A program made the translations under genes and the position numbers. A stretch of DNA of 64,000 bases from Malacoraja senta. Lineage: Eukaryota. How positions within the stretch are numbered: position 1 is the stretch's first letter; every line of letters starts with the position of its first letter. The stretch spans positions 310,001-374,000 of the forward strand of contig CM075990.1 in assembly GCA_038087875.1 (NCBI GenBank). The letters run 5' to 3'. The notes below the pieces were generated by a model. That model saw only the letters and a list, made by a program, of their open reading frames with translations. It made no database searches and had not been told where the DNA came from. Positions 3,800 to 36,449 of the stretch are shown here, in pieces.

Positions 3800-3887
3800 T
3801 GTAATGTTACTCCACTGTTCAAGAAGAGAGCAAGACAAAGGAGGCTGGTTAGCCTGACATCAGTGTTTGGCAAGATTTTAGAGTCTA
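3800..3887 (+). mobile_element. CR1 ORF2 fragment, left half of the copy split by the Helitron stack
   Basis: Translates ...VSLTSVFGKILES + first base of an Ile codon; continues in frame at 27790 as IIKDEISQYLE. Confidence 0.85.
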
Positions 3888-4299
3888 CTAGACTAAGTGG
3901 GACCCATTAGGTCCCATTCTCACACGGGAGGCCTGGTCCCCCAACGTAATATTCCACCACTCACCCATAGCCCCCAACTGCGCAGGCATGGCTGACGGGT
4001 TCCTGTTGTGATGCTTCCCCTCCGCCCTTGCCATCCCCCCCCCCCCCCCCACGTACTCACTCCATCCCCCCCTCCCCCATCCACTATTAGCGGCTCTCTG
4101 GCGGCGCATCCATTCCGCACATTGGGTTCCCATTGTGACATGGAACACGCCGGTATTACTGCGCAGGCACAGCTGACGGGCACGGCAAGTGGAAAAGGTA
4201 TTTATTAAAGCTTAAAATGTGAATAACTCATAATGTAATAACAATTTAAACATTAAAGTGGAGGTTTATTCAGTTCAGTTCTTTCTTCTTGGGTCTCTT

Positions 4300-5150
4300 G
4301 ATGCATTCTGCAGCAGGGGTGGTGGGATGGCTTCAGGCAGGGCCTGTCGAGGCCCGGTGGGGAGGTGGGGGAGCACTGCCATGGGCTACCGTTGCCGTGC
4401 CCTACCAATGCCGTAGCCTACTGCTGCTGTAGCCTACCACTGCCGCTGCTATGGTGGCCTATCAATGCAGTGGGGAGCATCCTACAGCTGGGGAAGGGGC
4501 TGCTTCAAGCTGGGGCCGGTGGGGGTGTGCGTCCTGCAGCCGTGGGAGGGGGATGGCTTCAGGCGGGGGCTGTCAGGGGCCAGTGGGGGAGGGTGTTCTC
4601 CAGCCGGGGAGCGTTCTATAGCCGGAGGACGGGGACAACTTCAGGCGGGGGCTGTTGAGGACCAGTGGGGGGGAGAACGTCCTGCAACCAGGGGATGGGG
4701 ACGGCTTCTGGTGGAGGCTGTCACGGGCCGGTGGGGGTGTAGTGTCCTGCAGCTGTATCCAGGAGAGGGGGATGGCTTCAGGCAGGGGCCGGCGTGGAAC
4801 GTCCTGCAGCCGGGGATGGGGATAGCTTTAGGGCGGGGGCCGGAGAGGGGGAGGCATCCTGCAGCTGGGGACGTGGACGGCTTCAGGCGGGGGCTGGTGG
4901 GGATCGTCCTGCAGCCTGGTGAGGGCGACGGTTTCAGGCGGAGGCTGTCGGGTACTGGTGGGGGGGGGGGAGCACTGGTGTGGCCTAACGCTGCCGTGGT
5001 CTACTGCTGCCATGGCCTGCTGTGGCCTACCAGTGTCATGGACTACCACCACCACAGCATACCCCTGTCGTGGCCTGCCGCTGCCACTGCCGTTGCCTTA
5101 TGCTGGCATGGTCTACCGCTGCAGCTGACGTGGCCTACCGCTGTGTGTCG
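4300..5150. repeat. Degenerate GC-rich minisatellite inside copy A
   Basis: Recurrent cgtcctgcagcc...ggatggcttcaggcgggggc unit, roughly 55-70 bp, plus ggcctac-type subrepeats. Confidence 0.7.
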
Positions 5151-5961
5151 GGGTGGGTGTGTGGCAGGGGGGTGGGGGGTGTGGGGTGGGAGTGATATGG
5201 AGGGGGAGGTGTGTGTTGGCAGGGTTGCTGTGGGGGCGGTGGGGGTGTGGGGGGAGGGGGGGATGTGGGGGATGTGGGGGGAGGGTGGTATGTGGGGGGA
5301 GGGTGTGTGTGTGGGGGTTGGTAGTGTGGGTGTGGGGGTGATGGTGGGGGTGGTTTTGTGGGGGGAGTGTGGGGGTGGTGGTGGGGGTGCAGGGGTATGA
5401 GGAGCTGTAGGGTGGGTGTTGGGGAAGAGTGCGTGGGTGGGTGTGTGAGGGCAGGGTTTGTGTGGGGGAGCGGGTTGTGGGAGGAGCGGGGCTCTGGGGC
5501 GAGCGGGGGAGTGTGGGGGCAGGGGGAGTGGGGGAGGGGGGGTGTGGGGTGACAGGAGTTGTGGGGGAGGGGAAGGGTGTGTGTGGGAGGGGAAGGGGGA
5601 TGTGTGGGGGGTGGGGATGAGGGCTGTAGGGGAGGGGGTTGTAGTGGAGGGGGTGTGGGGGAGGGGGTGTGGAGGAGGGGGATGTGGGGAGGAGGGGTGT
5701 GGATGAGTGTGATGTTGTGGTGGGGGGCTGCTGTGGGGTGGGAGGGGAGTGTGGGCTGGAGGCATGTGGGGGAGGGGGAGTGAGGGGTGTGGTGGTTGTG
5801 GGGGGAGGGGGAGGGTTTCGTGGTTGTGGGGGCATGGGAGGCGGTGTGTGTTTGGGGGGTGGACGAGTGTATGTGGGAATGGTGAGGGGGAGGGGGGAGA
5901 GGGAGGGGGGAGAGGGAGAAGTCGGGGAGGGGGTAGGGCGTGTGTGGACGGGGGGGGGGGG
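5150..5961 (+). repeat. G-rich low-complexity tract (GGGG/GT/GA) with G-quadruplex potential
   Basis: About 800 bp with dozens of G3+ runs and very few C. Confidence 0.85.
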
Positions 5962-6192
5962 TACGGCTTCACTTAACGGCTCTCGGACCCCGCCTCACTC
6001 AGTGGGTCCTGGCCCCGTTTCCTCTCACTCAGCGGCTCCCGAACGCACTAACTCATCGGTTCCCAGCTCGTCGTGATGGCAGACGCAGCCCCCCACTCGC
6101 TCTCCACACACCGCTCACTCCGCTCCTTCAACTTTATTCTCCTCGCCGCCGGTGAATGACAGCGGGTGCCCAAAGGGGCGTTTTTTACAATA

Positions 6193-8282
6193 GCCAATAG
6201 GTCCAGGAGCAGGCCATTCGGCCCTTCGAGCAAGCACCGCCATTTAATGTGATCATATAACCATATAACCATATACCCATTACAGCACGGAAACAGGCCA
6301 TCTCGGCCCTTCAAGTCCGTGCCGAACATTTTTTTTTTTTTTTTTTTTCTTGGCTGATCATCCCCAATCTGTACCCTGTTCCTGCCTTCTCCCCATATCC
6401 TCTCAGCTATTTTTAAGAGCCCTATCTAGCTCTCTCTTGAAAGCATCCAGAGAACCTGCCTCCACTGCCCTGAGGCAGAGAATTCCACAGACTCACCACT
6501 CTCTGTGAGAAAAAGTGTTTCCTCGTCTCCGTTCTAAATGGCTTACTCCTTATTCTTAAACTGTGGCCCCTGGTTCTGGACTCCCCCAAATTCGGGAACA
6601 TGTTTCCTGCCTCTAGCGTGTCCAAACCCTTAACAATCTTATATGTTCCAATGGGATGCCCTCTCATCCTTCTAAACTCCAGAGTGTGCAAGCCCAGCCG
6701 CTCCATTCTCACAGCATATGACAGTCCCACCATCCCGGGAATTAACCTTGTAAACCTACGCTGCACTCCCTCAATAGCAAGAATGTCCTTCCTCAAATTA
6801 GGGGACCAAAACTACTCCATGTGTGGTCTCACTAGGGCTCTGTACAACTGCAGAAGGTCCTCTTTGCTCCTATATTAGACTCCTCTTGTTATAAAGGCCA
6901 ACATGCCATTCGCTTTCTTCACTGCCTGCTGTACCCGCATGCTTACTTTCATAGACTGATGAACAAGGACCCCCAGATCCCGTTGTACTTCCCCTTTTCC
7001 CAACTTGACGCCATTTAGACAGTAATTTGCCTTCCTGTTTTTGCTACCAAAGTGGATAACCTCACATTTATCTGCATTAAACTTCATCTGCCATGCATCT
7101 GCCCACTCCTCCAACCTGTCCAAGTCACCCTGCATTCTCATAGCATCCTCTTCACAGTTCACACTGCCACCCAGCTTTGTGTCATCTGCAAATTTGCTAA
7201 TGTTACTTTGAATCCCTTCATCCAAATCATTGATGTATATTGTAAATAGCTGCGTTCCCAGCACCGAGCTTTGCGGTACCCCGCTAATCACTGCCTGCCC
7301 TTCTGAAAGGGACCTGTTAATCCCTACTCTTTGTTTCCTGTCTGCCAACCAATTTTCTATCCGTGTCAGCACTCTACCCCCAATACCATGTGCCCTAATT
7401 TTGCCCACTAATCTCCTATGTGGGACCTTATCAAATGCTTTCTGAAAGTCCAGGTACACTACATCCACTGGCTCTCCCTTGTCCATTTTCCTAGTTACAT
7501 CTTCAAAAAATTCCAGAAGATTGGTCAAGCATGATTTCCCCTTCGTAAATCCATGCTGACTCAGACCGATTCTGTTACTTCTATCCAAATGTGTGGCTAT
7601 TTCATCTTTTATAATTGACTCCAGCATCTTCCCCACCACCGATGTCAGGCTAACTGGTCTATAATTCCCTGTTTTCTCTCTCCCGCCTTTCTTATAAAGT
7701 GGGATAACATTAGCTACCCTCCAATGCACAGGAACTGATCCTGAGTCTATAGAACATTGGAGAATTATCTCCAAAGCATCCACAATTTCTGGAGCCACTT
7801 CCATAAGTACCTTGGGATGCAGACCATCAGGCCCTGGGGATTTATCAGCCTTCAGTCCCATCAGTCAATCCAACACCATATCCTGCCTAATGTGGATTTC
7901 CTTCAGTTCCTCCATCACCCCAGATCCTCTGGCCACTACTATATCAGGAAAATTGTTTGTGACCTCCTTAGTGAAGACAGATCCAAAGTACCTGTTCAAC
8001 TCATCTGCCATTTCCTTGTTCCCCATAATAAATTCATCTTTTTCAGTCTTCAAGGGTCCAACTTCGGTCTTAACAAATTTTTCCCACTTCACATACCTAA
8101 AGAGGCTTTTACTATCCTCCGTTATATTCTAGGCTAGCTTACCTTCGTACCTCATCTTTTCTCCCCGTATTGCCTTTTTAGTTATCTTCTGTTGCTCTTT
8201 AAACATTACCCAATCCTCTTGCTTCCCGCTCATCTTTGCTGCGTTGTACTTCTTCGCTTTAATTTTTATATTGTCTCTTAAA
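6193..8282 (-). mobile_element. 5'-truncated CR1 LINE nested in copy A
   Basis: RT motifs in ORFs 6875-7861 (NYRPVSLTS, QHGF, YLDFQKAFD, FADDTK) and 6422-6796; TACAATA repeated at 6186-6192 and 8283-8289. Confidence 0.95.
6422..8092 (-). pseudogene. CR1 ORF2 reverse transcriptase, disrupted
   Basis: Three ORF segments separated by stops or frameshifts. Confidence 0.9.
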
Positions 8283-8459
8283 TACAATATTTAAACCTTC
8301 ATAACTTTTGTAATATTCCACCGATCAGAAAAAAAACTTTGTGCACTTGCAGCACAGGAGAATGGCGAGTAAGGTGGTGAAAAATCATAGCACTATCACG
8401 CACCTTTTTTGCACAAATTTAAAAAAAGGACAAGATGAGAGTTTTAGTTAAGTACTAGA

Positions 8460-10314
8460 CTAGACTAAGTGGGACCCATTGGGTCCCATTCTCACATGGG
8501 AGGCCTGGTCCTCCAATGCAATATTCCACCAATCACCCATAGCCCCAACTGCACAGTTGCGGCAGACGTGTTCCCGTTGAAACGCTCCCGATCCACCCTC
8601 ACCTCCCCACTCTGCCCCTTGCCATTCCCCCCCCCCCCACACATGTACTCATTCCATCCCCCCTCAACCCTCCCACCACACTTAGCGGCTCTCCGGCGGC
8701 GCAGCCATTCCTGCCCAATGGGTTCCCAATGTGACATAGAACATGCAGGCATTACTGCGCAGGCGCATCTGACCGGCATAGCAAGTGGAAAAGGGATTTA
8801 TTAAAGTTTAAAATGTGAATAAATCTTAAAATAGTATGTAATTTGGTCGTGGGGGCGCTGCAAGCGGGCAGCCCTGCTAGCAGCGTGTCAGTTTTTTTGG
8901 CTTTTTAAATTTTTTTTAGTGTGTTTAAATGTATGTTCTTAATGTTTCTTTGTGTGTCTTTTGTGGGGGGGTGGTGTGGGGGGGGTAAGGGGAAACCACG
9001 GAGAGGCGACTTTTTCCGTGTCGCCTCCCCCGTAGCCTAACATCGAGGATCGGTGCGGCCTTTCCCGGAGACACGACCGGGGCTTCAGCTGCGGGCGCAG
9101 CGCGGACTCTCGGCGTGGAGTGGGCGAGCGCTCTGTTCGCTGGCCCGCGGCAGCCTGAAGCCGCAGTCTGCAGAGCTCCGGCTGGCGCGGCATCCGCAGC
9201 CTGGGATCCCTCGCTGGGGACCCGGGAGAAGAAGAAGCTCCGATTCCGACTGCCGGCCCGCAGCCAACATCTACCGCGGGCGCGGCGTGGACTTACCATC
9301 AGGAGCGGGGTCCCTCGCCGGGGATCCCTGGAGGGGAGCTTCGACTGCCGGCCCTGCGGTCTGCGGTGCTTCTGGCTGCGGCGCGGCGGGAACTCTAAAT
9401 CTCCGACAGCCGGCCTGCGGCCTACACCAACATGAAGCCGCGGTCTCGGGTGGAGGAGGCACCGATTCAGGACTTACCTTGACTTTCATTCATCTGGATG
9501 CCTGCAGCGGTGGCTGCGGAGGGTTGAGGTCCCGACCACGGGGGAAAATGGAGGAGGACTCGCCAAATTTTGAGCCTTCCACCACAGTGATGAATGCTGT
9601 GGTGGATGTTTGTGTTTAATTTTTATTGTGTTTTTGTGTGTTCTCTTTCATTGTACCACTGCTGGCAAATTAATTTCACTTGCACTTTATGTGAAATGAA
9701 TCCTCATTTAACATAAAGTGAGAATGAGGATTCTCCCTTTCTCATTCCCCCCCCCCACCCCCCAATCCCCCCCACTGCCACTCCTCATTTCCCCAGGACC
9801 TCGAGGTTGCAGCAGTCGGCGTCGCAGTCGGGCCGACTTTGGGGCGGATGGCTTCTGGACTCACTGACTCACGGCTTCTGGACTCACTACTCACTGATTT
9901 TCGGCGTCTGGGCTCATTATTTTCACTGACATACGGCTTCTGGACACAACTAAAATTGTGTTTGGTTGGAGACCTTCACCGGCCATCCAGAGCCTCGCGC
10001 AGCTGCAGTAAAGACGCGATGGTGCAGAAAGGGGCGGACCGTGCCGTGGAGTGACAGTAGAAGGGCCCAATCAGCGCGGCGCTGAATGGCAGGAGAGGCA
10101 ATCGATCTGCGTATGCGCGGTTTTTAAAGATTTTTAAACCTCGATAATTTTTACCAGCTTCCACCGATCGGAACAAAACTTGGTGCAATCGCAGTGCAGG
10201 AGAAGGGTGAATAAGCTGGCTAAACATCGTATCACTATCGCATACCATTTTTGCACAAATAGAATGACCGCCAAACCAGAAGATAAGAAGATGAGAGTTT
10301 TAGTTATGTATAGA
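8460..10314 (-). mobile_element. Non-autonomous Helitron-like element, copy B
   Basis: Minus strand A|TCTATACATAACTAAAACTCTCATC at 10314; perfect hairpin 8470-8488 then CTTAGTCTAG ending at 8460; 8460-8830 homologous to 3888-4235. Confidence 0.9.
8836..9700 (+). mobile_element. GC/CpG-rich non-coding retroposon-like insert in copy B
   Basis: Shares ggggtaagggggaaac, a gcgact...gtcgc hairpin, gatcgg.gcggcctttcc and a tttcact-type tail with 60100-60908. Confidence 0.55.
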
Positions 10315-10681
10315 TGGATATAAGTTATATATATATATATATATATAACTTATATCCATCTATACATATAGATAGAAGAATAGAATAGAATAGATAGATA
10401 GATAGGTAGAAGAATATAGAAGAAGACTAGACTACATGGGAGAGCTGGTCCCCCAACGCAATATTCCAACTCTCCACCAATTCCAATTTTGGTGGACAGT
10501 GGGGGGGGGGGGCTTTCTGGAGTGCTAGTATGGGTACTGTGGGCTGAAGGGACTGGTTAGTATGGACATTGTGGGCCAAATGGATTCTTGGGGTGGCAGC
10601 TCAGTCACTCAAGCCTGATGTGCTGGCAGCTCACTAACGGCTGGGGGGCTAGCAGTTGACTCACGGCTATTCCTTGAAATT

Positions 10682-11080
10682 CCATTTCAAGCAGGGTGCA
10701 AGGCATTCAAATTCAAATGCAGTTTCCTACCATTTCAAGCAGGGTGCAAGGCCACAAAATTCAGGTGCAGTTTCTTACCACTTCAAGCAGGTTGCAAGGC
10801 CACCGAATTCAAGTGCAGTTTCCTACCACTTCAAGCAGGGTGCAAGGCCACCAAATTCAAGTGCAGTTTCATGTCAATTCAAGCAGGGTGCAAGGCCACT
10901 AAATGCTAGTGCTGTTTCATGCCATTTCAAGCAGGGTGCAAGGCCACAAAATTCAAGTACAGTTTCATACCACTTCAAGCAGGGTGCAAGACAACCAAAT
11001 TGAAATGCAGTTTCATACCATTTCAAGCAGGGTGCAAGGCCACCACATTCAAATGCAGTTTCATACCATTTCAAGTGGGG
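10682..11080. repeat. 48-bp tandem array, about 8 units
   Basis: ttcaagcagggtgcaaggcc-type motif recurs every 48 bp (10685, 10733, 10781 ... 11069). Confidence 0.95.
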
Positions 11081-11496
11081 TGAAACCACCATAAAACCAC
11101 TATAAAACCACTCAAAACACCACATAAACACCACATAAACACCACACTCACAGTTCAGTAGACATTCAGTGTGTTCAGTTGATTCACAGCTCAGACAGAG
11201 TCGTGACCTCTCTCTCCCTGATCTTGCAGAGACTGAACCACACCCACACTTACAGGTTTTACAATCCCCCCCCTCCAACTGGAAGGGGCGTGGCCTTCAT
11301 GGCGTGATTGACAGGAGAGAGATTCTCAACAATTATTTAAACACTAATAACACTTTTATTTTTCAATGATGGGAAGAATCCTCTGCACCTGATGAGTGGC
11401 GAGGAACTGAGTAAGATGGACAAAAATCACAGCCATAAGTGGTAGCATTTTATCTAAAATCAATATTCAGTGCAAACAGGAAGTTGTCAAGTTTCC

Positions 11497-14400
11497 ACCA
11501 ACAGACATTTTTTTTTGCCATGCAGCCTTTCAAAGCAGTTACCACCACCAACAACAGCCTTTTTTTGCAGTGCAGCCTTTAAAAGTAGTTACCACCACCA
11601 ACAAAAGCCTTTTTTTTGCCGTGCAGCCTTATAAAGCATTTACCACAACCAACAACAGCCATTTTTTTTGCAGTGCAGCCATTCAAAGCAGTTACCACCA
11701 CCAACAACAGCCATTTTTTGCAGTGCATCCTGTCAAAGCAGTTACCACCACCAACAACAGACATTTCTTTGCAGTGCAGCCTTTCAAAGCAGGTACCACC
11801 GCCAACAACAGCCATTTATTATTGCAGTGCAACTACCTTTAAAAGCAGTTACCACCACCAACAGCCATTTTTTTTGCAGTGCAGCAGCCTTTCAAAGCAG
11901 TTACCACCACTAACAAAAGCATTTTTTTGGCAGTGCAGCCTTTCAAAGCAGTTACCACCACCAACAACAGCTGTTCATTTTGCAGTGCAGCCTTTCAAAG
12001 CAGTTACCTCCACCAACAACAGCCATTTTTTTTGCAGTGCAGCCTTTCAAAGCAGTTACCACCACCACCAACAGCCATTTTTTTTGCAGGGCAGCTTTTA
12101 AAAGCAGTTACCACCACCAACTGCCGCCATTTTTTTTGCAATGAAGTCTTTCAAAGTATTTACCACCACCAACAGCAATTTTTTTTTGCAATGCAGCCTT
12201 GCAAAGCAGTTACCACCACCAACAGCCATTATTTTTTTGCAGTGCAACCTTTCAAAGCAGTTACCACCAACAACATCATTCTTTCTTTTTTTGCAGTGCA
12301 GCCATTTAAAAGCAGTTAATACCACCAACAAAAGTCTTTTTTTTTTGCAGTGCAGCCTTTTAAAAGCAGTTACCACCACCAACATCAGCCTTTTTTTTTT
12401 ACAGTGCAGCCTTTCAAAGCAGTTACTAACACGAACAGCCATTTTTTTTGCAGTGCAGCCTTTCAAAGCAGTTACCACCACCAACAGCAGCCATTTTTAT
12501 TTGCAGTGCAGCCTTTCAAAGTAGTTACCACCAGCAACAGCCATTTTTTTGCAATGGAGTCTTTCAAAGCAGTTACCACCACCAACAGCCATTCATTTTG
12601 CAGTACAGCCTTTCAAAGCAGTTACCACCACCAACAACAGCCATTTTTTCTTTGCAGTGCGCCTTTCAAAGCAGTGCAGCAGCCTTTCAAAGCAGTTACC
12701 ACCACCAACAAAAGCATTTTTGCCGTGCAGCCTATCAAAGCAGTTACCAGCACCAACAACAGCCATTTTTTCTTTGCAGTGTGCCTTTCAAAGCAGTTAC
12801 CACCAACAACAACAGCCATTTTTTTTGCAGTGCAGCCTTTCAAAGCAGTTACCACCACCAACAACAGCCATTTTTATTTGCAGTGCAGCCTTTCAAAGCA
12901 GTTGCCATCAACAACAGCCATTATTATTTGCAATGCAACATTTTAAAAGCAGTTACCACTACCAACAACAGCCATGTTTTTGCAGTGCAGCTTTTCAAAG
13001 CTGTTACCACCACCAACAACCATTTTTTGCAGTGCAACCTTTCAAAGTTACTACCACCAACAACAGCCATTTCTATTTGCAGTGCAGCCTTTCAAAGTAG
13101 TTACCATCTCCAACAGCCATTTTTTTTTGCAGTGCAGCCATTCAAAGCAGTTACCACCACCAACAAAATTATTTCATTTTTGCAGTGCAGCCTTTTAAAA
13201 GCAGTTACCACCACCAACAACAGCCTTTTTTTTTGAAGTGCTGCCTTTCAAAGCAGTTACCACCACCAACAACAGCCATTTTTTGCAATGCAGCCTTTCA
13301 AAGCAGTTACCACCACCAATAAAAGCCTTTTTTTTCCAGTGCAGCCTATTAAAAGCAGCTACCACCACCAACAACAGCCATTTTTTTTGCAGTGCAGACT
13401 TTCAAAGCAGTTACCATCACCACCAACAGGCATTTTTTTTGCAGTGCAGACTTTCAAAGCAGTTACCACCACCAACAACATCCATTATTTTTTGCAGTGC
13501 AGCCTTTCAAAGCAGTTACCACCACCAACACAATTCTTTTTTTTTGTGGTGCAGCCATTTAAAAGCAGTTACCACCACCAACAGCCATTATTTTTTGCAG
13601 TGCAGCCTTTCAAAGCAGTTACCACCACCAACAACATTCTTTTTTTTTGCGGTGCAGCCATTTAAAAGCAGTTACCACCACTAACAACAGCCTTCTTTTT
13701 TTTGCAGTGCAGGCTTTCAAAGCAGTTACCACCACCAACAACAGCCATGTTTATTTGCAGTGCAACCTTTCTAAGCAGTTACCAGCACCAACAACAGCCA
13801 TTTTTTTTTAGCAGTACAGCCTTTCAAAGCAGTTACCACCACCAACAGCCATTTTTATTTGCAGTGCAGCCTTTCAAAGCGGTTACCGCCACCAACAACA
13901 GCCATTTTTTTGCAGTGCAGCCTTTCAAAGCAGTTATCACCACCAACAACAGCCATTTTTTTTAGCAGTACCGCCTTTCAAAGTAGTTCCCACCACCAAC
14001 AGCCATTTTTATTTGCAGTGCAGCCTTTCAAAGCAGTTACCACCACCAACAACAACCATTTTTTTGCAGTGCAGCCTTTTGAAAGCAGTTACCACCACCA
14101 ACAACAGCCATTTTTATTTGCAGTGTAGCCTTTCAAAGCGGTTACCACCAACAACAACAGCCATTTTTTTGCAGTGCAGCCTTTCAAAGCAGTTACCACC
14201 ACCAACAACAGCCATTTTTTCTTTGCAGTGCGCCTTTCAAAGCAGTGCAGCAGCCTTTCAAAGCAGTTACCACCACCAACAAAAGCATTTTTTGCCGTGC
14301 AGCCTTTCAAAGCAGTTACCACCAACAACAACAGCCATTTTTTTTGTTGCAGTGCAGACTTTGAAAGCAGTTACCACCACCAACAACAACCATTTTTTTT

Positions 14401-17400
14401 GCAGTGCAAACTTTCAAAGCAGTTACTACCAACAACAGCCATTTTTTTTTGCAGTGCAGCCTTTCAAAGCAGTTACCACCACCAACAACAGACATTTTTA
14501 TTTGCAGTGCAGCCTTTCAAAGCAGTTACCATCAACAACAGCCATTATTATTTGCAATGCAACATTTTAAAAGCAGTTACCACCACCAACAACAGCCATT
14601 ATTTTTTGCAATGCAGCCTTTCAAAGCAGATACCACCACCAACATCATTATTTCCTTTTTGCAGTGCAGCCTTTCAAAGCAGTTACCACCACCAACAACA
14701 GCAATTTTTTTGCAGTGCAGCCTTTCAAAGCAGTTACCACCACCACCAACAGCCATTTTTTTGCAGTGCAGCCTTTCAAAGCAGTTACCACCACTAACAA
14801 CAGCCATTTTTTTGCAGTACAGCCTTTCAAAGCAGTTACCACCACCAACAACAGCATTTTTTTTGCAGTGCAGAATTTCAAAGCAGTTACCACCACCACC
14901 AACAACAGCCATTTTTTTGCAGTGCAGCCTTTCAAAGCAGTTACCACCACCAACAACAGCCATTTATTTTTGCAGTGCAGTCTTTCAACGCATTTACCAC
15001 TACCAACAACAGCAATTTTTTTTGCAGTGCAGCCTTTCAAAGCAGTTACCACCACCAACAACAGCAATTTTTTTGCAGTGCAGTCTTTTAAAAGCAGTTA
15101 CCACCACCAACAACAGCCATGTTTTTGCAGTGCAGCTTTTCAAAGCTGTTACCACCACCAACAACCATTTTTTTGCAGTGCAACCTTTCAAAGTTGCTAC
15201 CAGCAACAACAGCCATTTCTATTTGCAGTCCAGCCTTTCAAAGTAGTTACCATCTCCAACAACAGCCATTTTTTTTGTCGTGCAGCCTTTCAAAGCAGTT
15301 ACCACCACCAACAAAATTATTTATTTTTTGCAGTGCAGCCTTTTAAAAGCAGTTACCACCACCAACAACAGCCTTTTTTTTGAAGTGCTGCCTTTCAAAG
15401 CAGTTACCACCACCAACAACAGCCATTTTTTGCAATGCAGCCTTTCAAAGCAGTTACCACCACCAATAAAAGCCTTTTTTTTTCCAGTGCAGCCTATTAA
15501 AAGCAGCTACCACCACCAACAACAGCCATTTTTTTTGCAGTGCAGACTTTCAAAGCAGTTACCATCACCACCAACAGGCATTTTTTTTGCAGTGCAGACT
15601 TTCAAAGCAGTTACCACCACCAACAACATCCATTATTTTTTGCAGTGCAGCCTTTCAAAGCAGTTACCACCACCAACACAATTCTTTTTTTTTGCGGTGC
15701 AGCCATTTAAAAGCAGTTACCACCACCAACAGCCATTATTTTTTGCAGTGCAGCCTTTCAAAGCAGTTACCACCACCAACAACATTCTTTTTTTTGCGGT
15801 GCAGCCATTTAAAAGCAGTTACCACCACTAACAACAGCCTTCTTTTTTTTGCAGTGCAGGCTTTCAAAGCAGTTACCACCACCAACAACAGCCATGTTTA
15901 TTTGCAGTGCAACCTTTCTAAGCAGTTACCAGCACCAACAACAGCCATTTTTTTTTAGCAGTACAGCCTTTCAAAGCAGTTACCACCACCAACAGCCATT
16001 TTTATTTGCAGTGCAGCCTTTCAAAGCGGTTACCGCCACCAACAACAGCCATTTTTTTGCAGTGCAGCCTTTCAAAGCAGTTATCACCACCAACAACAGC
16101 CATTTTTTTTAGCAGTACCGCCTTTCAAAGTAGTTCCCACCACCAACAGCCATTTTTATTTGCAGTGCAGCCTTTCAAAGCAGTTACCACCACCAACAAC
16201 AACCATTTTTTTGCAGTGCAGCCTTTTGAAAGCAGTTACCACCACCAACAACAGCCATTTTTATTTGCAGTGTAGCCTTTCAAAGCAGTTACTACCACCA
16301 ACAACAACAGCCATTTTTTTGCAGTGCAGCCTTTCAAAGCAGTGCAGCAGCCTTTCAAAGCAGTTACCACCACCAACAAAAGCATTTTTTGCCGTGCAGC
16401 CTTTCAAAGCAGTTACCACCAACAACAACAGCCATTTTTTTTGTTGCAGTGCAGACTTTCAAAGCAGTTACCACCACCAACAACAACCATTTTTTTTGCA
16501 GTGCAAACTTTCAAAGCAGTTACTACCACCAACAGCCATTTTTTTTTGCATTGCAGCCTTTCAAAGCAGTTACCACCACCAACAACAGACATTTTTATTT
16601 GCAGTGCAGCCTTTCAAAGCAGTTACCATCAACAACAGCCATTATTATTTGCAATGCAACATTTTAAAAGCAGTTACCACCACCAACAACAGCCATTATT
16701 TTTTGCAATGCAGCCTTTCAAAGCAGATACCACCACCAACATCATTATTTCTTTTTTGCAGTGCAGCCTTTCAAAGCAGTTACCACCACCAACAACAGCA
16801 ATTTTTTTGCAGTGCAGCCTTTCAAAGCAGTTACCACCACCACCAACAGCCATTTTTTTTGCAGTGCAGCCTTTCAAAGCAGTTACCACCACTAACAACA
16901 GCCATTTTTTTGCAGTACAGCCTTTCAAAGCAGTTACCACCACCAACATCAGCCTTTTTTTTGCAGTGCATCCTTTCAAAGCAGTTACCACCACCAACAG
17001 ACATTTTTTTTGTTGCAGTGCAGCCTTTCATAGCAGTTACCACCACCAACAACAGCAATTTTGTTTGCAGTGCAGCCTTTTAAAAGCAGTTACCACCACC
17101 AACAACAGCCATGTTTTTGCAGTGCAGATTTTCAAAGCTGTTACCACCACCAACAACCATTTTTTGCAGTGCAACCTTTCAAAGTTACTACCACCAACAA
17201 CAGCCATTTCTATTTGCAGTGCAGCCTTTCAAAGTAGTTACCATCTCCAACAGCCATTTTTTTTTGCAGTGCAGCCTTTCATAGCAGTTACCACCACCAA
17301 CAAAATTATTTCTTTTTTGCAGTGCAGCCTTTTAAAAGCAGTCACCACCACCAACAACAGACTTTTTTTTTGAAGTGCTGCCTTTCAAAGCAGTTACCAC

Positions 17401-20400
17401 CACCAACAACAGCCATTTTTTGCAGTGCGCCTTTCAAAGCAGTTACTACCACCAACAGCCATTTTTTTTTGCATTGCAGCCTTTCAAACCAGTTACCACC
17501 ACCAACAACAGCCATTTTTATTTGCAGTGCAGCCTTTCAAAGCAGTTACCACCACCAACAAGAGCCTTTTTTTTTGCAGTGCAGCCATTCAAAGCAGTTA
17601 CCACCACCAACAACAGCCATTTATTTTTGCAGTGCAGTCTTTCAACGCATTTACCACTACCAACAACAGCAATTTTTTTTGCAATGCAGCCTTTCAAAGC
17701 AGTTACCACCACCAACGTCAGGCATTTTTTTGCAATGCAACATTTTAAAAGCAGTTACCACCACCAACAACAGCCATTATTTTTTGCAGTGCAGCCTTTC
17801 AAAGCAGATACCACCACCAACAAAATTATTTATTTTTTGCAGTGCAGCCTTTTAAAAGCAGTTACCACCACCAACAACAGCCTTTTTTTTGAAGTGCTGC
17901 CTTTCAAAGCAGTTACCACCACCAACAACAGCCATTTTTTGCAATGCAGCCTTTCAAAGCAGTTATCACCACCAACAACAGCCATTTTTTTAGCAGTACA
18001 GCCTTTCAAAGTAGTTCCCACCACCAACAGCCATTTTTATTTGCAGTGCAGCCTTTCAAAGCAGTTACCACCACCAACAACAACCATTTTTTTGCAGTGC
18101 AGCCTTTTGAAAGCAGTTACCACCACCAACAACAGCCATTTTTATTTGCAGTGCAGCCTTTCAAAGCGGTTACCACCACCAACAACAGCCATTTTTTTGC
18201 AGTGCAGCCTTTCAAAGCAGTTACCACCACCAACAACAGCCATTTTTTCTTTGCAGTGCGCCTTTCAAAGCAGTGCAGCAGCCTTTCAAAGCAGTTACCA
18301 CCACCAACAAAAGCATTTTTTGCCGTGCAGCCTTTCAAAGCAGTTACCACCAACAAAAACAGCCATTTTTTTTGTTGCATTGCAGCCTTTCAAAGCAGTT
18401 ACCACCACCAACAACAGACATTTTTATTTGCAGTGCAGCCTTTCAAAGCAGTTACCATCAACAACAGCCATTATTATTTGCAATGCAACATTTTAAAAGC
18501 AGTTACCACCACCAACAACAGCCATTATTTTTTGCAATGCAGCCTTTCAAAGCAGATACCACCACCAACATCATTATTTCTTTTTTGCAGTGCAGCCTTT
18601 CAAAGCAGTTACCACCACCAACAACAGCAATTTTTTTGCAGTGCAGCCTTTCAAAGCAGTTACCACCACCACCAACAGCCATTTTTTTGCAGTGCAGCCT
18701 TTCAAAGCAGTTACCACCACTAACAACAGCCATTTTTTTGCAGTACAGCCTTTCAAAACAGTTACCACCACCAACATCAGCCTTTTTTTTGCAGTGCATC
18801 CTTTCAAAGCAGTTACCACCACCAACAGACATTTTTTTTGTTGCAGTGCAGCCTTTCATAGCAGTTACCACCACCAACAACAGCAATTTTTTTTGCAGTG
18901 CAGCCTTTTAAAAGCAGTTACCACCACCAACAACAGCCATGTTTTTGCAGTGCAGATTTTCAAAGCTGTTACCACCACCAACAACCATTTTTTGCAGTGC
19001 AACCTTTCAAAGTTACTACCACCAACAACAGCCATTTCTATTTGCAGTCCAGCCTTTCAAAGTAGTTACCATCTCCAACAGCCATTTTTTTTGCAGTGCA
19101 GCCTTTCATAGCAGTTACCACCACCAACAAAATTATTTCTTTTTTGCAGTGCAGCCTTTTAAAAGCAGTTACCACCACCAACAACAGACTTTTTTTTTGA
19201 AGTGCTGCCTTTCAAAGCAGTTACCACCACCAACAACAGCCATTTTTTGCAGTGCGCCTTTCAAAGCAGTTACTACCACCAACAGCCATTTTTTTTGCAT
19301 TGCAGCCTTTCAAACCAGTTACCACCACCAACAACAGCCATTTTTATTTGCAGTGCAGCCTTTCAAAGCAGTTACCACCACCAACAAGAGCCTTTTTTTT
19401 TGCAGTGCAGCCATTCAAAGCAGTTACCACCACCAACAACAGCCATTTATTTTTGCAGTGCAGTCTTTCAACGCATTTACCACTACCAACAACAGCAATT
19501 TTTTTTGCAATGCAGCCTTTCAAAGCAGTTACCACCACCAACATCAGGCATTTTTTTGCAATGCAACATTTTAAAAGCAGTTACCACCACCAACAACAGC
19601 CATTATTTTTTGCAGTGCAGCCTTTCAAAGCAGATACCACCACCAACAAAATTATTTATTTTTTGCAGTGCAGCCTTTTAAAAGCAGTTACCACCACCAA
19701 CAACAGCCATGTTTTTGCAGTGCAGATTTTCAAAGCTGTTACCACCACCAACAACCATTTTTTGCAGTGCAACCTTTCAAAGTTACTACCACCAACAACA
19801 GCCATTTCTATTTGCAGTCCAGCCTTTCAAAGTAGTTACCATCTCCAACAGCCATTTTTTTTGCAGTGCAGCCTTTCATAGCAGTTACCACCACCAACAA
19901 AATTATTTCTTTTTTGCAGTGCAGCCTTTTAAAAGCAGTTACCACCACCAACAACAGACTTTTTTTTTGAAGTGCTGCCTTTCAAAGCAGTTACCACCAC
20001 CAACAACAGCCATTTTTTGCAGTGCGCCTTTCAAAGCAGTTACTACCACCAACAGCCATTTTTTTGCATTGCAGCCTTTCAAACCAGTTACCACCACCAA
20101 CAACAGCCATTTTTATTTGCAGTGCAGCCTTTCAAAGCAGTTACCACCACCAACAAGAGCCTTTTTTTTTGCAGTGCAGCCATTCAAAGCAGTTACCACC
20201 ACCAACAACAGCCATTTATTTTTGCAGTGCAGTCTTTCAACGCATTTACCACTACCAACAACAGCAATTTTTTTTGCAATGCAGCCTTTCAAAGCAGTTA
20301 CCACCACCAACATCAGGCATTTTTTTGCAATGCAACATTTTAAAAGCAGTTACCACCACCAACAACAGCCATTATTTTTTGCAGTGCAGCCTTTCAAAGC

Positions 20401-22772
20401 AGATACCACCACCAACAAAATTATTTATTTTTTGCAGTGCAGCCTTTTAAAAGCAGTTACCACCACCAACAACAGCCTTTTTTTTGAAGTGCTGCCTTTC
20501 AAAGCAGTTACCACCACCAACAACAGCCATTTTTTGCAATGCAGCCTTTCAAGGCAGTTACCACCACCAACAAAAGCCTTTCTTTCCAGTGCAGCCTATT
20601 AAAAGCAGCTACCACCACCAACAACAGCTATTTTTTTTGCAGTGCAGACTTTCAAAGCAGTTACCATCACCACCAACAGGCATTTTTTTTGCATTGCAGA
20701 CTTTCAAAGCAGTTACCACCACCAACAACATCCATTATTTTTTGCAGTGCAGCCTTTCAAAGCAGTTACCACCACCAACAACATTCTTTTTTGCAGTGCA
20801 GCCTTTCAAAGCAGTTACCACCACCAACAACATTCTTTTTTTTTGCGGTGCAGCCATTTAAAAGCAGTTACCACCACTAACAACAGCATTTTTTTTTGCA
20901 GTGCAAGCTTTCAAAGCAGTTACCACCACCAACAACAGCCATGTTTATTTGCAGTGCAACCTTTCTAAGCAGTTACCACCACCAACAACAGCCATTTTTT
21001 TTAGCAGTACAGCCTTTCAAAGCAGTTACCACCACCAACAGCCATTTTTATTTGCAGTGCAGCCTTTCAAAGCGGTTACCACCACCAACAACAGCCATTT
21101 TTTTTTAGCAGTACAGCCTTTCAAAGCAGTTACCATCAACAACAGCCATTATTATTTGCAATGCAACATTTTAAAAGCAGTTACCACCACCAACAACAGC
21201 CATTATTTTTTGCAATGCAGTCTTTCAAAGCAGATACCACCACCAACATCATTATTATTTATTTTTTGCAGTGCAGCCTCTCAAAGCAGTTACCACCACC
21301 AACAACAGCAATTTTTTTGCAGTGCAGCCTTTCAAAGCAGTTACCACCACCACCAACAGCCATTTTTTTGCAGTGCAGCCTTTCAAAGCAGTTACCACCA
21401 CTAACAACAACCATTTTTTTGCAGTGCATCCTTTCAAAGCAGTTACCATCACCAACAGACATTTTTTTTGTTGCAGTGCAGCATTTCATAGCAGTTACCA
21501 CCACCAACAACAGCCATTTTTTTTGCAGTGCAGCCTTTTAAAAGCAGTTACCACCACCAACAACAGCCATGTTTTTGCAGTGCAGCTTTTCTAAGCCGTT
21601 TCCACCACCAACAACCATTTTTTGCAGTGCAACCTTTCAAAGTTACTACCATCAACAACAGCCATTTTTTTTGCAGTGCAGCCTTTCAAAGCAGTTACCA
21701 CCACCAACAACAGCCTTTTTTTTTGCAGTGCAGCCATTCAAAGCAGTTACCACCACCAACAACAGCCATTTTTTTTGCAGTGCAGTCATTCAATGCAGTT
21801 ACCACCACCAACAACAGCAATTTTTTTTGCAATGCAGCCTTTCAAAGCAGTTACCACCACCAACATCAGGCATTTTTTTGCAATGCAACATTTTAAAAGC
21901 AGTTACCACCACCAACAACAGCCATTATTTTTTGCAGTGCAGCCTTTCAAAGCAGATACCACCACCAACAAAATTATTTATTTTTTGCAGTGCAGCCTTT
22001 TAAAAGCAGTTACCACCACCAACAACAGCCTTTTTTTTTGAAGTGCTGCCTTTCAAAGCAGTTACCACCACCAACAACAGCCATTTTTTGCAATGCAGCC
22101 TTTCAAAGCAGTTACCACCACCAACAAAAGCCTTTATTTTCCAGTGCAGCCTATTAAAAGCAGCTACCACCACCAACAACATCCATTATTTTTTGCAGTG
22201 CAGCCTTTCAAAGCAGTTACCACCACCAACAGGCATTTTTTTTGCAGTGCAGCCTTTCAAAGCAGTTACCACCACCAACAACATTCTTTTTTTTGCGGTG
22301 CAGCCATTTAAAAGCAGTTACCACCACAAACAACAGCATTTTTTTTGCAGTGCAGGCTTTCAAAGCAGTTACCACCACCAACAACAGCCATGTTTATTTG
22401 CAGTGCAACCTTTCTAAGCAGTTACCACCACCAACAACAGCCATTTTTTTTAGCAGTACAGCCTTTCAAAGTAGTTCCCACCACCAACAGCCATTTTAAT
22501 TTGCAGTGCAGCCTTTCAAAGCAGTTACCACCACCAACAACAACCATTTTTTTGCAGTGCAGCCTTTTGAAAGCAGTTACCACCACCAACAACAGCCATT
22601 TTTTTGCAGTGCAGCCTTTCAAAGCAGTTACCACCACCTACAACAGCCATTTTTTTTTGCAGTGGAGCCTTTCAAAGCGGTTACCACCACCAACAACAGC
22701 CATTTTTTTTGCAGTGCAACCTTTCAAAGCAGTTACCACCACCAACAACAGCCATTATTTTTGCAGTGCAAC
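11497..22772. repeat. About 52-bp satellite, roughly 210-215 units, with higher-order repeats
   Basis: Consensus GCAGTGCAGCCTTTCAAAGCAGTTACCACCACCAACAACAGCCATTTTTTT(T). Confidence 0.98.
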
Positions 22773-22802
22773 AATATTTTCATTTTCAAACCATGTTAAG
22801 GG

Positions 22803-22930
22803 CACTCACAGTTGAGTAGACATGTGTTCAGTGTTATTCAGAGCTCAGAGAGATGTGACCCTCTCGTTTCTCCATCTTGCCGAGACTGAGTGAGGCACAC
22901 CACTTCCAGGTTTTATAGTCCCTCCCCACA
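22803..22930 (-). promoter_or_regulatory. Predicted Pol II core promoter and first exon in copy C, facing the 52-bp array
   Basis: TATAAAA 22917-22911, Inr TCAGTCT with A at 22887 (30 nt downstream), CAAGATGG, GTGAGT donor at about 22809. Confidence 0.5.
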
Positions 22931-23689
22931 GCAGGGGCAGCAGAGAGAATGGTGAAATTTTTAAAAACATTAATATCTCTCCGATTTTATATCGATGGGG
23001 AAAATCCTCCAGTCCAGTCCAGCGGAAGGGGGCTCTGAGCGAGCTGGCCGTAAATGATGGCCGTAAGGTGCGGCGTTCTCTCAGAAATCATATTGCAGTG
23101 TCTAAAGCGGTCAAGTAATATAGAAATAGACAGGTAGAATAGTAAGATTAAAAGAGAACTTACCAGTTTGAAGTTTGAACTTTATTTTATGAGGAGTTAC
23201 ATTGGTGATTACGTGAAGAAGACCCATCAGGGCGCATGCGCGTCAATCTTCAAAGCAGCGGTATGAAATCACAGATAACAGAAAATATGAAGTAACATGA
23301 GAACTACCATATGACCTTTATGAGAGAGAGGGTTGGGCGTGGCGGGCATGTAATCATCAACGTAACTCCTCATAAAATAAAGTTCAAACTTCAAACTGGT
23401 AAGTTCTCGTTTAATCTTACTATTTTACTTCGGAGTCACTTTAGTGATTCCGTGAAGAGTTCAAAGCTCTGTGATTTTATGCCGCAGATTCAAATCCCGG
23501 CTTCTCACTGCATTGATTGACTTCGGATGAGAAACAATCAATAATTCGTTAAACATGAAATTGAATATCATGCAGTAACAATTGATTTGAATAATCAAAA
23601 CAAACAGTAACCCCTCTATCCCAGCGGAAACTAAACAGAACTTAATACTGAATTTGCAAACAGCCTCTCCCCGATCGGCAATCGGCCGA

Positions 23690-24600
23690 TGGAAAAAAAC
23701 ATTTGAAAAATCAATTCATGTGACCACCCGGCACCTGTAGGAATATGGTCGATGGGAACATCCATCGCCCTAGCCGACGACGTTGCTGCTGCACTAGTGG
23801 AAAAAGATATATACACATCAGTGTTATTACCTGCCTGAATCAACATTTGCTTTAAACCACCTTGAGATAGTCTGCACTGACACTCTCCTGTGTGGCTTCA
23901 TGTAACTGATAAACAATCCTGTTTCCACATTTCTTAAGGCCCTTGTAGCTTCAATATAAAGAAAATAAATGTGCCATTGCACATAAACATGGATCAGTAG
24001 GTTATGCTGAAAACACAATTTTAACAAACCTGTGACACCTGGCCTGCTCTGTTTGAGCAGGACGCAAATATATAACATAACATTCTCTTCAGCCACTTCC
24101 ATCCTGTCTAGCTGAAACTTTTGCAAAATCTGCACTTGCTATGCTGAACCAATGCCATGAGCATGACCACCTTCATGGTTAGTTTGGCAAATTCAGAGAC
24201 ATGACAGGAACCTACTGTCGAAGCATCTTGAGGACCACACTTACATCCCAGATCGCCATATACCTGGGTTTAGGAGGTTTGGAGTTGAAATTCCTTTCAT
24301 CAATCGAGCTATGAGATGATGAAAACGCAATAGGATCTTTTCCTGACCCCATCAAAATATACGAGGACAAAGCACTTAAAGCTGTATTAATGGCAATATA
24401 ACTGAGCCCCTCATCATCGTAGAGTGTCGACAGGAACTCTAAAATATCCACAATACCTGCAGTACTATAGTCAATATTATTTTGCTCCCATTTTTTACAT
24501 AAGTAATATACCGCTTTTGAGTACTCTTTCTCCAGACTGCAGTGAGCATGTCCACCGTTCGCCCAGACAGTCCTCGCACCAGGTATGGCCTTCTTTAAAC
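23690..24600 (-). pseudogene. DIRS tyrosine recombinase, frameshifted
   Basis: ILEFL...GLSY.AINTA.SALSS, PRY..IWDVSVVL, LKQSRPG, LFISY.KPH..VS.QTISRW, ST.AAATS.A...VPIDHI...AGWS. Confidence 0.85.
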
Positions 24601-24699
24601 CTGCAAATTAACAAGTCAATACGATCACATAACGGATGACTTACCCGTGTTAGCGGATGCTCCAGTAAATTCCTACGCTTGGGAACCACCAAAGGAGGT

Positions 24700-25010
24700 T
24701 GGATCGCTAACTGTAACATGTAAAGGAAACCATGCTTGAGTCAGGCAATTAGGTATTACAAGCACCCCCGAAGCGGCATCCTACTTGATTTTTTGCAGAC
24801 TCCGACCTATGAGGTAGAATGGTGGGAAAATATATAAAAACATACCACCCCAATGTAGCGCGAAAGCATCAATTGCAACTGCCCCCTGGTCTGGTTCCCA
24901 TGAAACATATTTAGGCAGCCGGTGGTTAAACCTCGATGCAAAACAAATCGATAATTGGCATTCACATACAAGTACTATATTATTGAACACCTCCTGGTTC
25001 AACATCCAAT
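24700..25010 (-). pseudogene. DIRS Dam-like methyltransferase domain remnant
   Basis: FASRFNHRLPKYVSWEPDQGAVAIDAFALHW...YIFPPF..IGRSLQKI. Confidence 0.75.
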
Positions 25011-26250
25011 CTGTGTTGTCATGGAACTTTTGTGACTTGGCGTCTGCTACTATGTTGAATCTACCTGGTAGATAAATAGCTGAAAACCAAATATCTTTTT
25101 CAATGCACCAGGCCCAAATTTGATTAGCTAATCTGTCACAAGATACCGACTTGATTCCACCGATGTAATTAATATATATGCCACTGCCGTAGTATTGTCA
25201 ATCTGAAACTGAACATGCAGGTTACCTTTGTTAGAGCAATAAGCCTTATCCATAAAAAGCTCTTAATAGTTAACTCCGCATGTCTGCAGAAGCGATGCCT
25301 CTTGCTCAGTCCATCTGCCTCCACAGCTGAAACTCGTATCCGTGACACCCCACCCGAGTGCACTGACATTCATCTGCAAAATCATGGAAGGCTGGTCAAG
25401 CACTGCCTTGCTAGAACTCCTGGACACATGTTGAATCCACCATTGCAAATCAGAAACAGCCTCTGCTCATAACTGCATGGGTCTATTATAATGACCCGAA
25501 TGTATCCTTAGTGCCTCTATTAGCTTGATACAGTTGTCAATTAGCTCAACCCTTTTTCCCTGGGCAGAGTCACTTAATTGAATCAATTGTGACCCAAATA
25601 GTCAGGTGTTAATTTGGATTTGGCTGGATGAATAATGCCCAATCTTTGAAAATTGGATTTAACAACTACCACTGGTTACTTCAGCTGTTCTCTTGGATCC
25701 CCTTGTAATCAAGATATCATCGAGATAAGCCATGAGCACCTGACCCTGGCCTCTCAGTATGCCTATTATAGGTTTTAATAATTTTGTGCCATAGTTGATC
25801 CATCCAGGTGCATTTCAAATATCCTCTATCCTGCAAATGAACAGACATTGAGTAATCCGCATCTTTAAGCTTTATAGTCACCATATAGCATCCTCTTGAC
25901 CCAGTTGCTTGGCAGTGACATTCCATCTTACAATGTCTATACTACATCCCCCATGCTTTTTTGGCCTAGGAAAATATTAGACACCAATTGATGGGGTTGG
26001 TGAACCGACTTTCCAATTACACCTTTATCACATAAGCTTCCAAGCGCAGTCTAAACATCCATTTGTTCTGTTAATGAAAACTGAACAGTTCTCCCAGCAA
26101 CATGCTGAATGTGCAAATCACAATTTGGATTGAGCTCCATTCGAAACCCTTGAATAACACTCAGTATAAACAGAGCTGAGGTAATTTGCTTCCATTCATC
26201 CCACAACAGATGTACTGTACCCCCAGATTTAAGTTGTGTCACATTTGATA
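25010..26250 (-). pseudogene. DIRS reverse transcriptase / RNase H, heavily disrupted
   Basis: WDEWKQITS...ILSVIQGF, YMVTIKLKDADYSM, QWWIQH...SALGWG...CGGRWT.QE. Confidence 0.8.
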
Positions 26251-26376
26251 TGTGCACCTGAGAACCAGGCCCACCTACCTCCTTGGTACCTGGTGGATCA
26301 CGTTGTACCCGGCTCCTGGCGGGAAAGCCGACATTTGACCGTGTTCCTGCTGCAGAATGCCACCTGCGCATCTGCA

Positions 26377-27454
26377 TTACCTGCCGACTTGTTCCTGGTC
26401 CAGCCTCGTTTGTAGGGGTACTTTCTTTTTTGGAAACTTGCCGACCACCGGTGGCTTGATCAAGCCCACCGTCTTTGCCTCGTCATCCATGTCCTTGACA
26501 TGCTTGGCAAGGTCCTCTCCGAAGAGTAGGTTGGCCGGATGTATGTTGCTGGGCTGGCAGAGTACTGCAAACTTAGGATTAATAGTGGGCCGAATGGCAC
26601 TTTCCCTGAGACAATTTATCTCAAAATGGGTGCTACAAAACAACCCTAGTACCTCTTGCTGTGTCTCCGACACATGCCCTCCATCCACCGTTCTAGCGAA
26701 CGCTGTGATTCCTGAGCCAAGTAATTTCAGGATTCTCTGCAGCTTCATCTCCTGGGCACTGCATTCCCACGCCCGTCTGGCTCCATGTCACTCGGTTCAC
26801 TGCTGGCACCTTCAGCAACTCGCAGTTACCCAGGTCTCCTGTTTCTTGGCGGTTCCAGACTCTGACTGGACAGCGAATCGTGCTGCCAGAGATGGGAACT
26901 CTGACAACGGCCGTCTTCGCTTTCCCAGTGGCACTGCATACTCTGACGGGACAGCGAATCGTGCTGCCAGAGATGGACTTCTGCCAACGGCCGTCTTCGC
27001 TAGTCAACGAAGTCACCGTCAGAGTAGGGTCAGAACTGAGCTGACCCTCTGCACTTACCTCACAAATGAGGGTGGTATCAAACAGCCCTCTACCAGGTGC
27101 AGCCGGCGCGGCCTCTTCTGTAGCCTACCGCCCACACGACTCCTCCCCCTGAAGTGTGCGTTACTGGAGCAACCCCTGAATGAGGTGCTCCATATGGGAT
27201 ACCATTCAAAAACTGTATCCAGCCCCGTACGGGACTCGTCGCAGCCCGACTCAGTTGAGCCCTTACAGACATCCCCCTGGCCTGACGCCCGCTAGCGTTG
27301 GCTCTATGATAGTGCTTTATATCGCTAAGTCTGCAGTCGCTCCTCTCCCGGTCGGCGACTGTGTAGGGGTACGAGGCAGCCGCTCACAGACCACATTCCC
27401 GCGGCTCTCCTTTGCTTTACCTGCGGCTGCCCTCCCCCTGCTCGTCTTCACCAT
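26377..27454 (-). pseudogene. DIRS ORF1 (gag-like), disrupted
   Basis: FEINCLRESAIRP...LLFGEDLAKHVKD motif; ATG in gcaccATGG at 27454; internal duplication of about 63 bp at 26859 and 26940. Confidence 0.7.
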
Positions 27455-27789
27455 GGTGCTACCTGTAACAAAAAACACAGCAAAGGAACTTTTCACTCCA
27501 GCTAAGCTTCCCACTTAGTTGGAGTTTTAAAACTACTTAAAATATCAAAAATCCCTTACCTGAAGAGGAGCTCTGTCCTCCTGCTGGTCCGTGCACCAAT
27601 GCGTCCGACGTAAAATCACGCGTATGCGCCCTGACGGGTCTTCTTCACGGAATCACTAAAGTGACTCTGAAGTAAAATATAGAATATATAGAGATAGAGA
27701 CAGACAGACAGACAGAGAGGCAGACGGACAGTAATAGATAGAAGAATAGATAGAATAGAATAGATCGAAGATAGAAGAAGATAGATAGA

Positions 27790-34300: not shown

Positions 34301-34924
34301 AACTGCAGAATCTCCACTCCCTCTTGAGTGCCTATATTCTTTATAATATGACAGAGCAATTTGCAGCACACTACGCATGATCTAACCAAGGTTTGAACCA
34401 GGTCATCGAGTCACAGAGCAAGCCCTGCGGGCCATGCCAACAAGTTAGCCAACTAAGCTGGTCCCATTTGTCTTGTTTGGTCCAAAACTGTCCTGTCCAT
34501 CTACAAGTGCCTTTTAAATGTTGTAATTGTACCTGCCTCTACTACTTCCTCTGGTACCTCTTTCATGTACCTACCACCCTCTATATGAAAAATTAGCTCC
34601 ACATGTCTCTTTTAAATCTTTCCGCTCTTATCTTAAATCTATGCTCTCTACTTTTTAGGCTCTCTTATCATGTGGAAATGACTATGACTATACACCTTTT
34701 ACCTACCCCATATCTATATTACTAAAAGTAAGATCTTGACCGCTTTTGACTCACTGCGATGTGATTTCCGAGAGAACACCGCCACTTACGGCCGTCATTT
34801 TTGGCCACCTCGTTCAGAGCCCCCCTCCGCCGGAGTGGACTGGAGGATTTCTCCCATCGATGAAAAATCTGAGAGATATTAATGTTTTTTTTTTTAATCA
34901 CCATTCTCTCTGCTGCCCCTGCTG

Positions 34925-36408: not shown

Positions 36409-36449
36409 GTGGTGTTTTGTGTGGTTTTATGGTGGTTTTATGGTGGTTT

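Follow-up and report, generated by a model that had tools for sequence, protein, structure and literature searches.

How does a simple repeat arise in front of a transposon, when nearly every unit of the repeat spells the beginning of that same transposon? The question is raised by a 58-nt tract in the DNA of Malacoraja senta, found in a stretch of 64,000 nucleotides that was analysed as a whole and is called the window below. A preliminary description had given the sequence and coordinates of this tract exactly; it had parsed the tract into prefixes of a Helitron 5' end and had explained it as the residue of repeated abortive strand transfers, one for each unit. The parsing stands and the explanation is supported in part: the tract is a product of the junction whose units are spelled from the Helitron start, and it is not a record with one unit per transposition. 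The position of the repeat at the element start and its absence from the original site suggest that copying stuttered at the cut made by the enzyme. The publications cited below were available in part, and what is said of them refers to the available text.

Results

Helitrons of the window

The window consists of repeat-rich eukaryotic DNA, and its SINE and LINE sequences appear similar to those of cartilaginous fish. Several copies of one non-autonomous Helitron family, with 5' TCTATA and a 3' hairpin followed by CTAG, lie within it. We divide them into subfamily X, which starts with TCTATATTAC and comprises element B and the copies 34713-37362 and 50324-52330, and subfamily Y, which starts with TCTATACATAAC and comprises elements C and D (Table 1). 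The two starts have six bases in common. The reference sequence of the preliminary description, TCTATATTAC, is the start of the subfamily of B, 12.7 kb away, and the neighbouring element C begins with TCTATACATAAC.

Table 1. Features in and around the Helitron nest, in coordinates of the window
Feature	Position	Strand	Remarks
LINE, left half	3828..3887	+	ORF2 to ...KILES; last base is the A of the divided codon
Element D, subfamily Y	3888..8459	-	head-to-tail directly behind C; 5' tip altered
Element C, non-autonomous Helitron, subfamily Y	8460..10314	-	start TCTATACATAAC; 3' hairpin and CTAG
Perfect palindrome around a TA run	10305..10368		64 nt; z -10.3
Tract 1	10369..10426	-	14 units of 3-7 nt; starts one base past the terminal CTAG of B
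Element B, non-autonomous Helitron, subfamily X	10427..23124	-	start TCTATATTAC
Tract 2, proximal part	23125..23137	-	13 nt, directly 5' of the start of B
DIRS-like retroelement	23138..27679	-	terminal repeats and internal complementary region; inside tract 2
Tract 2, distal part	27680..27789	-	110 nt; opens with TC at the LINE junction
LINE, right half	27790..27900	+	opens with TT of the divided codon; IKDEI... follows

The 5' TC is present in B (23124), in C (10314) and in the copy at 34713; the copy at 50324 has G, and the tip of D is altered. A further copy near 55660 has its 5' end in an N gap and was not counted, which leaves five readable 5' ends. At the other end, CTAG is found in all five aligned ends and the terminal hairpin, which in this family lies about 10 nt upstream of CTAG, in four of them. 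Element B has lost its terminal hairpin by deletion, and a second hairpin-like segment (10427-10460), a weak fold with z -0.39, now lies 10 nt from CTAG. Both ends of B are 90% identical to the copy 34713-37362, and B carries tandem arrays of 48 bp and 52 bp. Element D is interrupted at about 6180-8280 by a LINE (RVT_1, E 6e-30), and a long G-rich stretch of low complexity lies inside it at window positions 5100-5950.

The tandem arrays differ among the X-subfamily copies, with units of 52, 45, 48, 69 and 68/132 bp and positions 11495-22770, 35090-36069, 36450-37069, 50673-51348 and 54248-55510; the array in B (11495-22770) counts 217 units over 11.3 kb. The motif TCTATATTAAAATT, which resembles a 5' end, occurs at 51513 (plus strand) and 54074 (minus strand) inside two X-type copies and is perhaps a captured terminus. 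We excluded both occurrences as 5' ends, being internal to these copies and having a common upstream sequence.

The family is abundant in the contigs of four related sequencing runs. This comparison covered 4 of 21 listed runs against window positions 8280-10325 and left out contigs resembling human DNA, an omission that could bias it against repeats. The 3' end of element C (8459) is sharp: in all four runs 159-297 contigs per run exit there into unrelated AT-rich flanks, and the agreement of the flanks past this end is 0.41-0.43, i.e., the flanks are diverse. Among the 24 matches listed out of 5,070 in these runs, none has a loose 5' end at 10314. At 8454, at the C/D junction, five letters are absent in 12-18 contigs per run in all four runs; this gap possibly marks recurrent head-to-tail junctions that lack the first four bases, and possibly arises where AT-rich flanks align by chance. 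A degenerate pattern for the 5' end, run against metagenomes, returned 102 loci, none matching the element beyond the pattern, and scans of viral and prokaryote genomes for the element gave no match.

Composition of the tracts

Read on the minus strand from 10426 to 10369, tract 1 consists of four TCT, five TCTA, three TCTAT, one TCTATAT and one CCTA. Thirteen of these 14 units match the opening bases of the Helitron exactly, and 57 of the 58 bases agree. The 8-nt unit of the earlier parse is TCTA followed by CCTA and no prefix. The 7-nt unit agrees with the subfamily of B and not with the adjacent C, and a substitution or an AT slip may account for it. Tract 2 opens in the same manner: its first 56 nt (27789-27734) are 14 units, namely four TCT, five TCTA, four TCTAT and one substituted unit, beyond which the sequence is degenerate and rich in TCTG.

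We compared all 1,024 5-mers as templates for tract 1 and the first 56 nt of tract 2. TCTAT tiles these clean segments at a cost of 3, whereas the runner-up costs 10. Since the best 5-mer on the opposite strand, used by its suffixes, costs 12 against 3 for the prefixes, the units have a fixed start and a variable end. Only about five bases of the tract are informative. In the clean segments taken together 16 of 28 units are length variants, 2 are substituted and 16 end in T. Each tract precedes a Helitron start on its 5' side and runs on the strand of the element, which agrees with the polarity described before; this evidence comes from one nest, because both tract-bearing ends lie there.

The clean segments of the two tracts align at 89% over 54 nt (p=0.06 against shuffled units) and have a 17-nt end in common (p=0.003 for a segment picked post hoc). 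In addition, the rare variant TCTACCT stands on either side of B, just before its start and shortly after its end. The common end and the flanking variant indicate block duplication. Two other sources for the tracts were considered: a 10-nt match between tract 2 and a common SINE segment was taken as chance, and the 3' tail of a retroelement was rejected, as neither tract adjoins a retroelement end in the required orientation.

Tract 1 lies 5' of the start of C but does not directly abut it, as the perfect palindrome stands between them. The arms of this palindrome contain the first 10 nt of C and 11 nt of upstream sequence; it is an inverted duplication of the 5' junction of C.

The DIRS-like element inside tract 2 has a 4-nt overlap at its ends and repeat identities of 94% and 97%. 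It is degraded: as to the RT, RNase H, methyltransferase and tyrosine recombinase domains of DIRS1-like retrotransposons, Pfam returned only PCIF1_WW (E 0.0016, under the cut-off), and its protein motifs, assigned by eye, are presumably those of a DIRS-like element.

The target site

Both tracts belong to a nest in which non-autonomous Helitrons follow one another head-to-tail over 24 kb, and which interrupts a LINE. When each half of the LINE was aligned to a single intact paralogue from the window, the halves met at one position, no base being gained or lost, and a single Ile codon of ORF2 proved to be cut by the nest after its A, in frame (A|T). By this alignment, the entire nest entered at one A|T, and that site carried no repeat. 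The LINE flanks join without a tract, thus the tract was not pre-existing at this site, and the explanation that the preliminary description had itself named as fatal to its reading, a target that already held the repeat, is not what we see; the empty site is a paralogous reconstruction and not an orthologous one. A tract that was born elsewhere and then carried in may also be compatible with a clean empty site. The target holds one TCTAT of its own on the opposite strand, so that the flank, too, may have served as a template. At 3883-3887 and 27790-27800, on the strand that is opposite to that of the nested elements, the target site itself resembles the element start (TCTA and an AT-rich run).

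Insertion at A|T without target duplication is seen for the nest and for the copy at 50324 (0 extra bases each), and the copy at 34713 has at most 2 extra bases as judged against a weak paralogue. The base directly 5' of B is T, not A. The copies at 34713 and 50324, which have the other readable ends of the window outside the nest, carry no tract, and element D abuts C directly. A tract is therefore found at two of the five readable 5' ends (B and C), both in one nest. The simplest reading is that tracts 1 and 2 are one tract of about 180 nt, split by B and the DIRS-like element. We rejected the treatment of the two as independent cases: they lie in the same nest with B between them and have a rare variant in common. 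With tracts on both sides of B in one nest, the number of loci is one.

Slippage simulations

TCTA is a common microsatellite unit, and ordinary slippage has to be weighed as the origin of the tract. We simulated slippage with substitution and single-base indels in a null model that is our own and crude. Starting from pure TCTA, a tract as clean and as mixed as the observed one appeared in 0-0.27% of runs (15 settings, 3,000 runs each), and starting from a seed of 3-4 mixed units in 0.4-7.4% of runs (12 settings); these percentages concern a locus that was chosen for its oddity. By permutation, the unit order of tract 2 shows no clumping (p=0.79) and no unusual reducibility (p=0.16), while that of tract 1 shows mild clumping (p=0.02-0.07) and variable reducibility (p=0.04-0.29). 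Tandem de-duplication shrinks both clean segments to 4-7 units.

In forensic TCTA repeats, long runs of the pure unit are interrupted by CCTA, TCTG, TTTA, TCA, TA or TCCATA (PMC7075041); neither TCT nor TCTAT is among these interruptions in the available text, and this control is skewed to pure forensic loci. By their many length variants and few substitutions the clean segments are unlike an ordinary (TCTA)n repeat, but tract 2, in its middle part with many TCTG units, looks like an ordinary compound repeat. Taken together, the simulations, the permutation tests and this middle part imply that some anchored events were probably needed and that slippage has acted too.

Discussion

We favour, with moderate confidence, reiterative synthesis of 3-7 nt anchored at the nick site of the transposase and followed by slippage; this confidence belongs to rejoining by the transposase and repair by the host taken as one. 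The Rep domain would nick immediately ahead of the terminal TC, and the 3'-OH released in this way would prime synthesis into the element. Synthesis would halt after 3-7 nt, and the short product would either be rejoined to the 5' end held by the protein or be displaced and primed again at the same point. Several such rounds, possibly in one or few episodes, would each leave one more prefix and keep the flank intact. Template switching at the same unstable junction would yield the inverted copy of the first 10 nt of C, slippage and block duplication would then lengthen the tract and erode its middle to TCTG, and the later arrival of B and of the DIRS-like element would split it. In favour of anchored synthesis speak the units, which begin at the terminal TC, end variably and lie on the strand of the element, and the tract-free empty site; the perfect fold-back of the junction fits it as well. 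Against it stands the fact that all this is one locus, with tract-free copies at 34713 and 50324. On this reading the number of units is not a tally of transposition events.

The separate parts of this reading have counterparts in known systems. In Helraiser the nick falls between the flank and the 5' TC and its determinants lie within the terminal 40 bp (PMC4778049), and this nick has been proposed to prime the synthesis that regenerates the donor (PMC5876387). The ten de novo Helraiser insertions described in the available text are all canonical (PMC4778049). At a P-element junction, a 49-nt insertion with units of variable length was copied from the flank in one event, in a Rad51-null mutant of the Pol theta helicase domain (PMC2895639). 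As a single end-joining event can write such a tract, the reading of one abortive transfer per unit is weakened, and the signs of block duplication and the two other readable copies, which are tract-free, also speak against it. The model of synthesis-dependent microhomology-mediated end joining (SD-MMEJ) yields direct and snap-back inverted repeats (PMC2943611), and inverted repeats are what the palindrome requires.

Among Helitrons, the nearest likeness is found in Fusarium oxysporum, where 5'-terminus repeats of 31-85 nt were attributed to self-insertion (PMC5148889); multiple termini are described in maize as well (PMC3288121). In Fusarium, as here, the first n terminal bases are repeated before the element, with varying n and varying combinations. 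However, the Fusarium repeats occur once or twice in the cases given in detail and the extended termini move as a unit, whereas here at least 28 units of 3-7 nt form a microsatellite-like tract that is known from one locus. Canonical Helitrons of the Helraiser type share with our elements the 5' TC, the hairpin with CTAG, the insertion at A|T without duplication and the head-to-tail neighbours, but additional bases 5' of TC lie outside the junction described for them in the available text (PMC4778049, PMC5876387).

End joining by Pol theta or by synthesis, at P-element and I-SceI breaks, resembles our case in its iterated 3-8-nt copies of adjacent sequence and in its direct and inverted repeats, with up to 49 nt per event (PMC2895639, PMC2943611). 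There are also differences. Every unit here restarts at one base and one template dominates; the host flanks have lost no LINE base; the restarts at TC follow T in 16 of 28 units and have no match to the upstream A, unlike the microhomology of SD-MMEJ; and the lesion would be an HUH nick, as opposed to an excision break. Telomere-targeted Helitrons of Paramecium (PMC13085455) and DINE-1/HINE elements (PMC4067079) have, like ours, a simple repeat of fixed polarity that adjoins the element or lies within it, and the lepidopteran elements that disrupt (GAAA)n may be comparable. In the available descriptions of such repeat-linked Helitrons the repeat is a pre-existing target or is internal, whereas here the empty site lacks it and its units are spelled from the terminus. 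Outside subscription papers and supplements, our literature search found no account of tracts built of such short prefixes in front of Helitrons and no report of the nick-extend-rejoin step, and it yielded no useful work on Helitrons from cartilaginous fish; the available parts of PMC13286980, PMC4224331, PMC3789558 and bioRxiv 2024.11.21.624632 hold nothing on such prefix tracts.

One would argue that the tract is an ordinary microsatellite, seeded by a chance duplication of the TCTA start and expanded by slippage, which also propagated two early small indels, one losing A and one gaining T. The commonness of TCTA repeats, the reducibility of the clean segments to a few units and the success of a mixed seed in some of the runs all agree with this, as do the TCTG units in the middle of tract 2. 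However, a pure seed hardly ever succeeds, length variants far outnumber substituted units, and the forensic repeats, for all their bias to pure loci, show no TCT or TCTAT interruptions in the available text (PMC7075041). We consider this origin rather unlikely. It is distinctly unlikely, in turn, that the repeat came from another locus and moved together with the elements, by a nick at the outermost TC or by read-through at the damaged 3' end of B. If it did, the empty site here is silent on its birth. The nest opens exactly with TC after A, B has no terminal hairpin and loss of the hairpin increases read-through (PMC4778049), copies in Fusarium whose 5' termini are repeated are mobilised as units (PMC5148889), and the clean segments resemble each other. 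Yet this resemblance is within the range of shuffled units, about 180 nt would precede the cleavage determinants in the terminal 40 bp (PMC4778049), and a composition of prefixes only is left unexplained.

The explanation of the preliminary description, many separate abortive strand transfers at the same A|T, each trimmed to a few bases, shares with anchored synthesis the support of prefix composition, polarity and tract-free empty site. Moreover, three Helitrons re-used the site in the same orientation, and re-insertion right behind the flank A would keep the A|T rule every time. It nevertheless requires at least 28 events at one dinucleotide and trimming to 3-7 nt, which makes it the least economical of the anchored models; it leaves the palindrome unexplained, the signs of block duplication speak against it, and such products are absent from the available descriptions of Helraiser (PMC4778049, PMC5876387) and of wheat. 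We hold it to be very unlikely. Almost no credence can be given to the idea that the units are stubs of complete self-insertion at the 5' tip, built up over rounds of transposition, each insertion at the A|T between bases 4 and 5 leaving TCTA upstream. Such insertions were proposed for the multiple 5' termini of Fusarium (PMC5148889), the tip of D with C in front of it fits a loss of the first four bases, and the contigs lacking five letters at 8454 point the same way, unless that gap is due to chance alignment of AT-rich flanks. But the clean units that end in T, 16 of 28, would require T|T insertions, and among Helraiser insertions those outside AT number 46 of 1,751 (PMC4778049).

Anchored synthesis may also be conceived as a general habit of the family, in which the Helitron transposase nicks the 5' end of a resident element, host polymerase adds 3-7 nt and rejoining creates microsatellites with a fixed start throughout the family; this extension is rather unlikely. 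If it held family-wide, such tracts would be a sequence record of failed initiation at the 5' nick in rolling-circle transposition, a step never observed directly. They would also be a case of microsatellite birth without a pre-existing repeat and would help to account for head-to-tail pile-ups of Helitrons. If it is the transposase that writes the tracts, the spectrum of unit lengths would tell how far synthesis goes before the nick is reversed, and new A|T sites would attract further elements and so produce head-to-tail nests. At present it is one well-resolved locus, and its known effect on the host is none.

Other features of the window

Two further structures lie outside the nest. The segments 57579-58458 and 63121-64000 lie about 5-6 kb apart and make up a long inverted repeat with 92-95% complementarity over four pieces, which reaches the end of the window and perhaps belongs to a large element with terminal inverted repeats. 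At 31103-31318, an inverted pair of SINE-like pieces makes up a 216-nt imperfect palindrome (81%).
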